Below are positions 3-64,000 of a stretch of DNA of 64,000 bases, one piece after another; position 1 is the first letter of the stretch; each line of letters begins with the position of its first letter. Origin of the DNA: Candidatus Omnitrophota bacterium (GTDB taxonomy: Bacteria > Omnitrophota > Gorgyraeia > Gygaellales > Profunditerraquicolaceae); assembly GCA_030693145.1 (NCBI GenBank), contig JAUYBI010000041.1, forward strand, positions 10,228-74,227. The letters are read 5' to 3'. A program made the translations under genes and the position numbers. The notes under the pieces were generated by a model. The model made no database searches, was not told the origin of the DNA, and saw nothing but the letters and a program-made list of their open reading frames with translations.

Positions 3-3000
3 AAAAAGCCGCAATGGGCAGAACAAAAGGGAGTAAAAGAAACTTTGACGCAGTATGTGATCCGACAGGCAATAGAGGAGGCAACCGGTAAAAAGTTAGA
101 AGATGCGGTAATCGAACTAAACAAGCCGATTATCATAGATGAAGAAAAAGGAATCAGCCTTAAGATTTTATCTGTGGCAATGACATATAAGGAGTTTGCA
201 GGCAAAGATGGCGTGATAAAAGAAAAAGCGCATCGTTTAGGCATTATTAAAGAAGATGACGCAAATATAGTTATATCATTACCAAATGAAATCCTGGAGG
301 TTGGTTTTAGCGTGCAGGAAAAGATAGAGGCATTGAAAGCAGTAATAAGCTTTCAAATAAGGAAAGCCAGGTATTTACAAAATACGGGCCTTAGCCTTGA
401 AGACGAAATAAACTACGAGAAGATATTCCTGTCTGAGAATATAGAGTTATTAGAAGGAGACAAATTTGTGCCAAGCAATATGTTAAAGTTGCTAGGACAA
501 GTATCTGCGGCGATATCGATTATCCGGTTTACTAAAAAAACTATCCAAGAAGGTAAGGTGCCGGTTATAGCCAAGGATATGGATGGGACATGGACAGCTG
601 CCGGAACAAAGATGACTCCGGAGATGGCATACTATGCCTGGATTTATTTGAGAAACCATAAAATTATAAAATCAGTGCTTACAGCCCAGATGTTTGAGGG
701 TCCGCTGAAACAGGTATTAGAAGAGGTAATCCAGATAAACAACCGGATCGAGCTTATGGAGACACAAACCGGCATAAAGCAGGGAAAGCACTCTTTAGAG
801 GACCTTTTTAAGACATTTATAATCGGAGCTTCTTCAGGGAACGCGATTTTTGTTTACGATTCAGCTAAACAAGGCCATAAAAAGGTGTTTCAGAATTCAA
901 TGGATATTTTAACCACTAAGATAATTGAATTAGCAGGCAGGTTAACCATGCCGGAAATTCCTTATTCTGCGGAAGGCCACACCATAGAAAAAAGAGAAGC
1001 GGAATTTAAAAAACTGGTTAATGCGCAAGATGATAAATATGAAGTGTTAGGGTATGCTGCGTTGGCAGTTTTAATCTCAGGCCGGCATGATAAGCGCAGG
1101 GATTGTGATTTACCTCCGAGAGCGGAAAAACGCAGGTTGCAGGGGTTATTAATATCTGAGTTGCTAAAAACTCCGGGAGATTTAGTCGGATTATTAGATA
1201 AAATAGCGAAAAAAGAACTAACTGAAAAATGGGAAATTTCGATTAATCTGGGAGAAAAACAGTACTTGCATAGGGTTCGGGAAGACCAGAAAGAGGCGAT
1301 TGTTAGGGGATACGATGAGTTGAGGGAATTATTGAAAAGAGAGGATAAGCAGCCGAGCCAATTAGCGCCCATATATTGCTCGACTCAGCCCGGCGGAGCA
1401 ACGACATTAGATATTTCGCCTACCGGTAAAGGGCAGGGTATCGAGAATACGATTAAGGTTATAAAAAAGGAAAACGGAATTGGCGCTGACCGCCTTAAGA
1501 TAGGATTTATAGGAGATGAGATTTTGGAAGTATTAGTTCCGGGGATAGACATTAAAGTACCGGGCAACGATTATGATGTGGCTGATAGAGCGCTTAAGAA
1601 AGAAGAATTCAACAGCTTAATGGGTTTGATAATGCATGTCGGCCCGCTGGGCAAAGAAATTACAGTATTACCTAACACCTCTACTGCATACAATCCATTA
1701 GGAGTGATGCCGCATGAAGTGAGCAAAATTCTAGCCTATGCTTCAGCGGCAGTCTATAAAGAAGAGGCTTATAAAGAACTTGAGGCCAACGCGGAATATG
1801 TTTTAGCGAAGTTAAAAAAGTTAAACATTTCTCTTTTATCGTTTGGCGTTGAAAAAATAGAAGAACTTAATGAAGGTTCAGCTAAAGAAATTTTACTGGT
1901 AATTTCAAATGATAGGCTAAATACAAAAGATAATGATGATAAATATGACGGGGGAGAAATAATAGAAAAGTCAGAGGTAAAAGTTCATCCTTGCCTGCCG
2001 GGCAAAGTAAAACATGTTATGTTAATTCAGCCGGGTTTTATTTGGCAGATAAATAAACCTACCCGTATGCCTCTGGGATTAATGTATTTGGCCAGCGCTT
2101 TACGAAAGGATTTTTCTAAAGTAGATGTTTCAATAGTTGATATGCCGGCCGAACAGATCGATGTAGATGGATTAATCAGAAAAATTGGCGAAGAAAAACC
2201 CGATGTAATAGGAGTTTCTTTGATTTCTGTCTTCTTTGGAATCGGTAAGGAAATAGCCAGCGCGATAAGAAATAATTATCCGGAAATTCTGCTTGTTACA
2301 GGAGGGCCACATTCTTCCGCATTGCCCGAATACACGTTGCGTAACTCTGATTTTGATGTTGTGGTTATCGGTGAAGGCGAGTTGACTTTTAGCAGGGTTG
2401 TAGAGGCATTTGGTTACGGGAAAAGCTTTAGAGGAATAGACGGGGTTTGTTTTAAAGAAAAAGGCCAAATTATCAGCGGAGGATTTGTTTCCGATAGGCA
2501 TGATATTGAGGAATTACCGATGGCTGCCGAAAGCTTAGATCTGTTACGGTTGGATCGTTATGACGATATATTAGAAGGAGAGTTGGTTTATCCGATTATG
2601 GCGGCCAGAGGGTGTTATCATAGATGCGCCTTTTGTGCGGGCCAAACAGTTTTCCCTCGAGTAAGGAAGCGCAATCCAGAATCGGTGGTTAATGAGATAG
2701 AATTTGTGTATCGTAATTATGGAATTGAAATGTTCCACTTTTTTGATGATACATTTACAGCGGATCAAGAATATGCCAGCAAGATATTTGAACTGATAAT
2801 TAAAAGGGCTTTACCGGTCAGATGGATGGCTATGACGCGCGCAGACGCGATTGTGCGCAAGGTAAAAGAAGACGGAGACTACGGTAAAGAACAGGAATTT
2901 TTGAGGCTTGCTAAAGATTCCGGGTGCACTGGTTTTGCTATTGGAGTGGAGAGCGGTGACGAAGCAATTCTAAAATTAATGAATAAGCACCTCAACCTCG

Positions 3001-64000: not shown

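Follow-up and report, generated by a model that had tools for sequence, protein, structure and literature searches.

A recurrent Asp-Gly-Gly tripeptide at the unit borders of a giant multi-enzyme reading frame from an Omnitrophota bacterium: a candidate processing site

The DNA described here, hereafter the window, is a stretch of 64,000 nucleotides from contig JAUYBI010000041.1 of Candidatus Omnitrophota bacterium (assembly GCA_030693145.1; positions 10,228–74,227 of the forward strand). It is occupied by a single giant open reading frame (ORF) in which the in-frame tripeptide Asp-Gly-Gly (DGG) recurs at the borders of units that correspond to complete proteins. This punctuation is real and statistically solid. 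Judging from the sequence we would put at roughly 0.45 the probability that DGG is a double-glycine-type processing site, the coding DNA of which also serves as microhomology for the shuffling of units. The preliminary description of the window had offered two readings of the motif, a Gly-Gly linker or cleavage signal in a bacterial polyprotein and a nucleic acid core site at which cassettes are joined in frame; each of them is partly right.

The open reading frame and its punctuation

Frame 3 of the plus strand is free of stop codons from nt 3 to nt 63998, giving an ORF of 21,332 codons which is open at both ends and consists of concatenated units; the remaining five frames hold 712–2294 stops each. 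The window is best read as lying inside a giant gene of the Omnitrophota "multi-enzyme" type, in which formerly separate genes have been joined head to tail without their start and stop codons. Coordinates are those of the window, and all of the features lie on the plus strand.

DGG occurs 53 times in the ORF against 5.8 occurrences expected from amino acid composition, which at 9.2-fold makes it the most over-represented tripeptide; among all XGG tripeptides the enrichment is limited to DGG. The strong excess had been recognized in the preliminary description, which listed 52 sites and overlooked the one at 10389, itself an exact copy of the octamer GACGGCGG. This octamer is present 30 times (29 by the earlier count), in all 30 cases in the frame of the ORF, and its reverse complement, CCGCCGTC, is absent from the window, so that the motif is indeed never found out of frame or on the other strand. 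The expected number is 0.34 per strand from mononucleotide composition and 0.42 from codon frequency. Sixteen of the 30 octamers extend to GACGGCGGC.

As had been noted, the bulk of the Asp codons in the ORF are GAT (915, versus 272 GAC). Outside DGG as well, however, Asp before Gly is specified by GAC in 48% of cases and Gly before Gly by GGC in 54%. When codon context is taken into account one would expect about 14 exact octamers among the 53 DGG sites, not 3; 30 are observed (binomial p=2e-6). The earlier contention that the octamer calls for more than selection on the protein therefore pointed in the right direction and overstated the size of the effect. A general third-base context was considered as the cause of the octamer and rejected, as C before G is not favoured overall and the bias is limited to Asp-Gly and Gly-Gly pairs. 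Conservation around the sites is limited to 8–9 nt, and the flanks show no general conservation of either amino acids or nucleotides, in agreement with the previous statement that flanking residues vary.

A second tripeptide, SQG, is about 3.5-fold enriched in the ORF. By eye it seems to recur some 10–25 residues upstream of several DGG sites (DVSQGD.., LSQGDF.., ISQSQG.., SPSQGK..), and its recurrence in the 38–55 kb region hints at a loose extended linker signature.

Placement at native protein termini

Pfam and NCBIfam searches of the window place none of the 30 octamers inside a domain envelope, though a third of the ORF (33.6%) lies within envelopes (P=4.6e-6). That most DGG sites might lie inside conserved domains had been raised as an outcome that would speak against the motif as a boundary mark; only one of them does (42396, which is not an octamer), in an ORF where about six DGG are expected by chance. 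Full-length family models were extrapolated to their ends, and a terminus was taken to adjoin a DGG if it lay within 40 aa (N-terminal) or 30 aa (C-terminal) of one. Eighteen of the 29 native termini obtained in this way adjoin a DGG, compared with 2.7 at random (0/20,000 permutations). The module borders named at the outset were likewise borne out: phosphoglucose isomerase (PGI; 29484/31308), hexokinase (34449/35802), PMM (20163/21807) and His-phosphatase (37866/38607).

The N-termini begin 0–10 residues after Gly-Gly (second PGI copy, 0; hexokinase, 4; PMM, 5; HxlA, 5; first PGI copy, 10), and the upstream enzymes end 3–27 residues before Asp, with tails that are slightly polar. Tight spacing on the N-terminal side together with loose spacing on the C-terminal side fits P-side recognition and a cut after Gly-Gly. 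Each unit is in effect a gene minus its start and stop codons. Unit lengths are proteome-like (median, 285 aa), and six pairs of sites enclose short spacer peptides of 2–28 aa. In some units, which share the ORF with cytosolic enzymes, a signal-anchor-like hydrophobic start follows directly upon Gly-Gly.

Several units comprise more than one domain without a DGG between the domains, which are connected by ordinary helical linkers; no other junction motif was found at these DGG-less domain borders. DGG therefore marks a particular class of boundary rather than every domain edge.

Selection on the tripeptide

In-frame sequences that differ from the octamer by a single base and keep DGG number 13, versus 2.3 expected (5.6-fold), and those that change the peptide number 11, versus 8.1 expected, which is background. 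By this comparison the tripeptide is under purifying selection. In the old paralog pair S02/S08 (synonymous divergence, dS, 1.9) the junction codons have drifted to GAT/GGA and the peptide is still DGG. The younger PGI pair (dS 0.82) carries four identical copies of GACGGCGGC, at non-homologous distances from the PGI core. Along the ORF, exact octamers account for 2/10 sites in the first 21 kb versus 28/43 sites beyond it (p=0.014). The excess of octamers, which is real and smaller than first claimed, follows the young junctions in these comparisons. Since the junction codons decay synonymously with age, the octamer looks more like the product of shared ancestry or homogenization of young junctions than like a constrained DNA site.

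The tripeptide is also conserved in a relative. A representative search with the PMM unit returned more than 60 multi-module ORFs, of which only P0243, on contig L005, shares the DGG feature. L005 (9.2 kb; GC content, 44%) represents part of a related long ORF, the PMM module of which is 53% identical to that of the window. It contains four DGG versus about 0.9 expected (Poisson p about 0.013), and all four fall between domain envelopes, in the order ?-DGG-isochorismatase-DGG-NTP_transferase-DGG-PMM-DGG-PMI. They are encoded by GATGGGGGA, GATGGCGGC, GACGGCGGC and GACGGAGGA, the exact octamer being present in one of the four. Some of the residues following Gly-Gly recur between L005 and the window (RQE.., SN.K..), which is suggestive only. 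L005 also carries an in-frame TAG (7341–7343) at a conserved Trp of phosphomannose isomerase (..PYAEL*VGAHPKAP..), downstream of which the ORF continues in frame to the end of the contig; sequencing error, pseudogene and read-through are all conceivable here.

A putative processing site

We favour a processing site because the tripeptide is invariant with free flanks, because it is the peptide that is selected, because spacing on the N-terminal side is tight and because some paired sites enclose spacer peptides. That cytosolic and signal-anchor-like units share one chain argues in the same direction. DGG would occupy positions P3–P1 of a double-glycine-type site, its second Gly being the last residue before the cut. 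This is the position at which C39 enzymes cleave, and a Gly-Gly-specific peptidase, either C39-like or another member of clan CA, would presumably be encoded outside the window. The downstream enzyme would thus acquire a near-native N-terminus and the upstream product would keep a short tail ending in DGG; some of the released products would be multi-domain blocks. The reading is further encouraged by reports on the giant genes of the phylum, where C39 peptidase domains are reported to be common, where the long proteins include a metabolic class of multi-enzyme type and a large group with C39 (PF03412) (10.64898/2026.06.07.730766) and where cleavage by C39 or S8 domains has been proposed (West-Roberts et al. 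2023 preprint; 2026 complete-genome preprint).

Several observations weigh against cleavage. The 64 kb contain no peptidase by Pfam (E<=1), NCBIfam, PDB sequence and C39 motif searches, in which the unannotated units were included. As far as the sequence can show, the earlier cleavage-signal reading is supported, by the native termini, the purifying selection and the retention of the motif with other codons in a relative of about 53% identity. There is no canonical double-glycine leader and no conserved –7/–12/–15 pattern upstream of the sites; P4 is hydrophobic at about a quarter to a third of them (Leu or Phe at 14/53), and Asp at P3 is not known to be required by C39 enzymes. Some of the units delimited by DGG are truncated fragments, which would be useless if released. 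Among the relatives, 32 other multi-module ORFs with the same PMM clade contain 12 DGG versus 31 expected, that is, no enrichment. P0246 carries hexokinase, PMM and NTP-transferase without DGG, and the PGI modules of the closest Omnitrophota fragments are likewise fused without it. Multi-enzyme giants evidently exist without the DGG mark. No substitute punctuation tripeptide stands out in the 32 related ORFs, the pooled enrichments being domain motifs that they share.

A stronger proposal, that in a free-living or symbiotic bacterium sugar-phosphate metabolism is in large part expressed as a true polyprotein of dozens of ordinary enzymes, which is cut at DGG by a Gly-Gly peptidase and grows at these sites by in-frame cassettes of unit plus junction, is in our opinion possible and somewhat doubtful.

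Rather unlikely, and the best of the alternatives, is that DGG is an uncleaved hinge, turn, flexible joint or docking mark between folding units. The giant protein would then stay intact and the tails would be ordinary linkers. The location of the sites between domains and the polar tails on the upstream side are what one might expect of a hinge. The lack of a detectable peptidase in the window and the related ORFs that do without DGG agree with it, as do the plain helical linkers inside some units, which indicate that fusion is tolerated, and published proteomics of another giant protein left its processing unsettled. Passive linkers, however, need no invariant tripeptide with free flanks, yet here the peptide is under purifying selection and only Asp is accepted before Gly-Gly. 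The asymmetry of the spacing is also more typical of processing sites, as are the 2–28-aa spacers between paired sites and the signal-anchor-like starts after Gly-Gly.

Copying of junction DNA between units

Direct repeats that include the junction bracket three units: the first PGI copy (17 nt), 42405–43142 (15 nt) and 50343–50933 (20 nt). Extended identity is enriched among pairs of adjacent junctions (3/46 versus 8/1326, p=0.005), and truncated modules abut junctions. Five copies of a GC-rich 31-nt junction element, with the consensus TTGRCCGYTCARCGCGCYTT-GACGGYGG and the peptide [DG]RS[AT]R[LF]-DGG, lie within 48718..54607. They end at 48748, 50344, 50935, 51913 and 54607, where they close five non-homologous units with identical rare codons (P of the codon coincidence about 1e-6). 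An 89-nt linker that spans a junction (43145..43233; ..EFSxFxxGxEGxRYxGE-DGG-xxQKL) has a second copy at 45473–45561 with 78% identity, and a 35-nt junction element is also present twice in the window. Finally, a 102-nt fragment (within 12519..12626) copied from the start of unit 15768–18635 is 91% identical to 15753–15854; the similarity sets in exactly with the DGG codons, and at its other end the fragment has a further DGG (12618). The repeats and shared codons indicate that junction DNA has been copied between non-homologous units.

Since all junctions have a short GC-rich coding sequence in common, they would at the same time supply the microhomology through which units are duplicated, inserted and converted. 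Young junctions would be held at the canonical GACGGCGG(C) and old ones would drift to other DGG codons, and the nucleotide uniformity of the young junctions would follow from the shared microhomology.

One might alternatively regard DGG as primarily a DNA-level joining site, with GACGGCGG(C) as the core of an in-frame cassette or recombination system and the peptide merely tolerated. This accommodates the 30 exact copies in one frame and strand, about twice the 14 or so expected after codon context, the 31-nt linker with the same rare codons on five non-homologous units, the three units in 15–20-nt direct repeats with their enrichment among adjacent pairs, the fragment copy that begins exactly at DGG and the truncated modules next to junctions. 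We nevertheless hold it to be improbable. The decay of the octamer is filtered so as to preserve the peptide: the S02/S08 junctions have drifted and still read DGG, octamers are few among the early sites and common later, and L005 retains DGG with four different sets of codons. No recombinase domain was found in the window with Pfam or NCBIfam, nor were there a hairpin, an attC-like structure or a match to an Rfam family at the junctions. Eight bases without flanking conservation would be short for a site-specific recombinase. An extended 23-nt junction pattern was found in no related genome or metagenome contig, its only matches being chance ones in unrelated GC-rich genomes and in one GC-rich metagenome contig. 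The earlier notion of a nucleic acid joining site thus holds as regards the copying of junction DNA and the direct repeats around three units, and does not hold as regards a recombinase, a structured site or resistance to synonymous decay. The label "integron-like" is not supported in the sense of membership, there being no integrase in the window and no structured site at the junctions.

A signal acting in translation or at the RNA level (a ribosomal pause for co-translational folding, RNA processing, internal initiation or peptide-bond skipping) might explain specific C-ending codons in an AT-rich gene and their location at the boundaries of folding units, and is very improbable: folding energy and pairing at the octamers are no different from those of controls in which the octamer was placed at random in frame (p=0.68), and on this result and the lack of an Rfam match an RNA structure or ribozyme was rejected; internal initiation is discounted by the absence of a start codon or a Met/Val pattern after the junctions; no 2A-like NPGP is present; and synonymous variants, which are found at genuine boundaries as well as in L005, argue against a nucleotide-specific signal.

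Comparison with known systems

The gene belongs to a known and recently described kind, the Omnitrophota multi-enzyme giant genes. Like them it is a stop-free ORF of tens of kb which tiles PGM/PMM, methyltransferases, radical SAM proteins, hexokinase and HEAT repeats, and its best PGI relative belongs to an Omnitrophica metagenome-assembled genome. Full-length genes of the class are characterized by C39 peptidase and SecA-DEAD domains and numerous transmembrane helices; the window, which is internal, has few transmembrane segments (about 10 hydrophobic segments) and no C39, SecA or dockerin domain by Pfam and NCBIfam. The punctuation motif is not mentioned in the literature that we searched on these giant genes; "DGG" is found in the text of neither the 2023 nor the 2026 preprint, and the cleavage points are stated there to be unknown.

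In the double-glycine leaders of C39 substrates (bacteriocins, PCAT) Gly-Gly is invariant at P2–P1 and the product begins with the next residue. The window agrees with this in so far as Gly-Gly lies 0–10 residues before position 1 of the PGI, hexokinase, PMM and HxlA models. Unlike those leaders, each of which is single and N-terminal, the motif lies inside the chain in dozens of copies; it lacks the hydrophobic –4/–7/–12/–15 consensus, has an invariant Asp at P3 and is accompanied by no C39 domain in the window. Membership of the C39-substrate class, as far as the sequence allows one to judge, fails on the leader consensus.

Viral polyproteins and polyubiquitin are cut after Gly-Gly by papain-like proteases or deubiquitinases, and the junctions of polyubiquitin are homogenized by unequal recombination. 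They resemble the window in combining many proteins in one chain, in border sites that end in Gly-Gly (LxGG in coronaviruses) and in the presence of some spacer peptides. The window, by contrast, belongs to a cellular, bacterial gene for housekeeping-type enzymes of sugar-phosphate metabolism, the units of which are unrelated to one another.

The Rhs (PxxxxDPxGL) and CdiA (VENN) proteins likewise have a short peptide motif at a module border, the coding DNA of which doubles as homology for swapping, and the Rhs motif is also a proteolytic site. There, each protein has a single border and the module is a toxin tip, as opposed to some 40–50 serial borders between metabolic enzymes in the window.

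In integrons, too, a short sequence recurs at the borders of the cassettes, and direct repeats of such a sequence flank some of the units in the window. Here, however, the junction forms part of the translated frame and its codons undergo synonymous drift, and no unit brings its own start or stop codon; by sequence, membership fails on the integrase (within the window) and on the structure of the site.

The window thus offers about 40–50 specific candidate positions for cutting, all coinciding with the native ends of enzymes, and whether giant bacterial proteins are processed becomes directly testable. For annotation and structure prediction the DGG sites are principled points at which to split such proteins. 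If cleavage is confirmed, the gene would encode housekeeping-type enzymes as a cellular polyprotein, and DGG would exemplify a peptide mark with a second role, that of its coding DNA in driving the shuffling of modules. Should the polyprotein reading in its full form be true, protease sites would replace the operon, a strategy that at this scale is so far known only from viruses. If cleavage is not confirmed, DGG would still be a lineage-specific marker of separate genes welded into a giant ORF.

Enzyme content and individual units

The window has a GC content of 38.7% (37% at third codon positions, GC3) and a uniform composition, and its coding strand is rich in purines. Pfam and NCBIfam searches identified more than 25 distinct families along the polypeptide, none of which is dominant; the chain consists of complete, mostly cytosolic full-length enzymes, plus some membrane units and many units without annotation. 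The modules include B12-radical SAM, DegT aminotransferase and a GHMP-type kinase; APS kinase plus PHP phosphatase (twice) and a CofD-like module; PMM/GlmM, three PGI-type modules (two of them 79% identical to each other) and an AroE-like module; 6-phosphogluconate dehydrogenase (6PGD) and 6-phosphogluconolactonase (6PGL); several methyltransferases, a nucleoside-kinase-like module and an ARMT1 phosphatase; eukaryote-type hexokinase, His-phosphatase, NagA, HxlA and HxlB; and PEMT, HEAT repeats and CN-hydrolase. Overall the content amounts to a coherent hexose-phosphate and sugar-nucleotide set. Approximately the last third of the ORF is without recognizable family or homolog, the final 2,132 aa having no homolog at E<=1e-5.

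The best resolved unit is the second PGI copy (29484..31316), bounded by GACGGCGGC on both sides; position 1 of the equivalog model is the first residue after Gly-Gly, and the model ends three residues before the next Asp. Within it there is a partial duplication, 24 residues long, of a conserved motif of its own (30212–30265 and 30329–30382). This duplication is not present in the first copy and may be a recombination scar in an otherwise intact enzyme. The first PGI copy (24108..25931) is enclosed by an exact 17-nt direct repeat, GACGGCGGCTCCTTTGA, at 24108 and 25908, and a second DGG follows at 25923, two residues past that at 25908. The top match to PGI is found on a contig of a "Candidatus Omnitrophica" metagenome-assembled genome (71% identity), the next matches being unbinned or mis-binned fragments; the window itself holds no marker gene.

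The hexokinase unit (34449..35810) has the exact octamer on both sides; its domain starts four residues after Gly-Gly and ends 10 before Asp. The enzyme (34458–35801) has the two-domain architecture known from eukaryotes (PF00349 + PF03727) and shares about 40% identity with vertebrate hexokinase-2. A protein search with this unit was dominated by vertebrate tandem hexokinases and recovered no relatives, and a search for related loci in genome contigs confirmed none. The hexokinase module of P0246, which is similar to that of the window, is flanked by transmembrane helices. P0246 possesses an element of its own, of about 65 residues, at two module borders (residues 150–215 and 1252–1318; ..IATNNNPN..HELN[DG]GTHQEN..), which was found neither in the window nor in the other hits. 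In the PMM/GlmM-type unit (20163..21815) the upstream junction is the synonymous variant GACGGTGGA and the downstream one an exact octamer; the N-terminus lies five residues after Gly-Gly and the C-terminal tail measures 13 residues.

The multi-domain units without internal DGG include B12-radical SAM, DegT and GHMP (1956–7469), AroE-like, 6PGD and 6PGL (25932..29492) and kinase plus ARMT1 (32274–34457). At 7470–10397 and at 15768–18635 a PHP-domain module similar to 3',5'-bisphosphate nucleotidase comes after an APS kinase, the PHP-containing part being duplicated with 49% identity (dS about 1.9).

The HxlA/HxlB region (41976..44219) begins with the N-terminal half of HxlA, which contains the in-domain DGG at 42396. 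The following unit (42405–43142) is flanked by the 15-nt direct repeat GATGGAGGTATTAAT, and after a tandem pair of DGG sites (43134/43209) comes the HxlB (SIS) unit. Two fragment units, the N-terminal half of an HxlA/OMP-decarboxylase barrel (41985–42404) and a 64-residue piece with motif I alone of a SAM methyltransferase (50151–50342), suggest decay or breakage at junctions.

A signal-anchor-like N-terminus directly after Gly-Gly is seen in 51903..52469 and likewise in unit 63120–63584. Between these lies unit 52470–54605, in which tandem repeats of 111–117 nt with 61–71% identity (52566–53116) correspond to HEAT-like repeats; this unit is distantly paralogous to unit 56442–59906.

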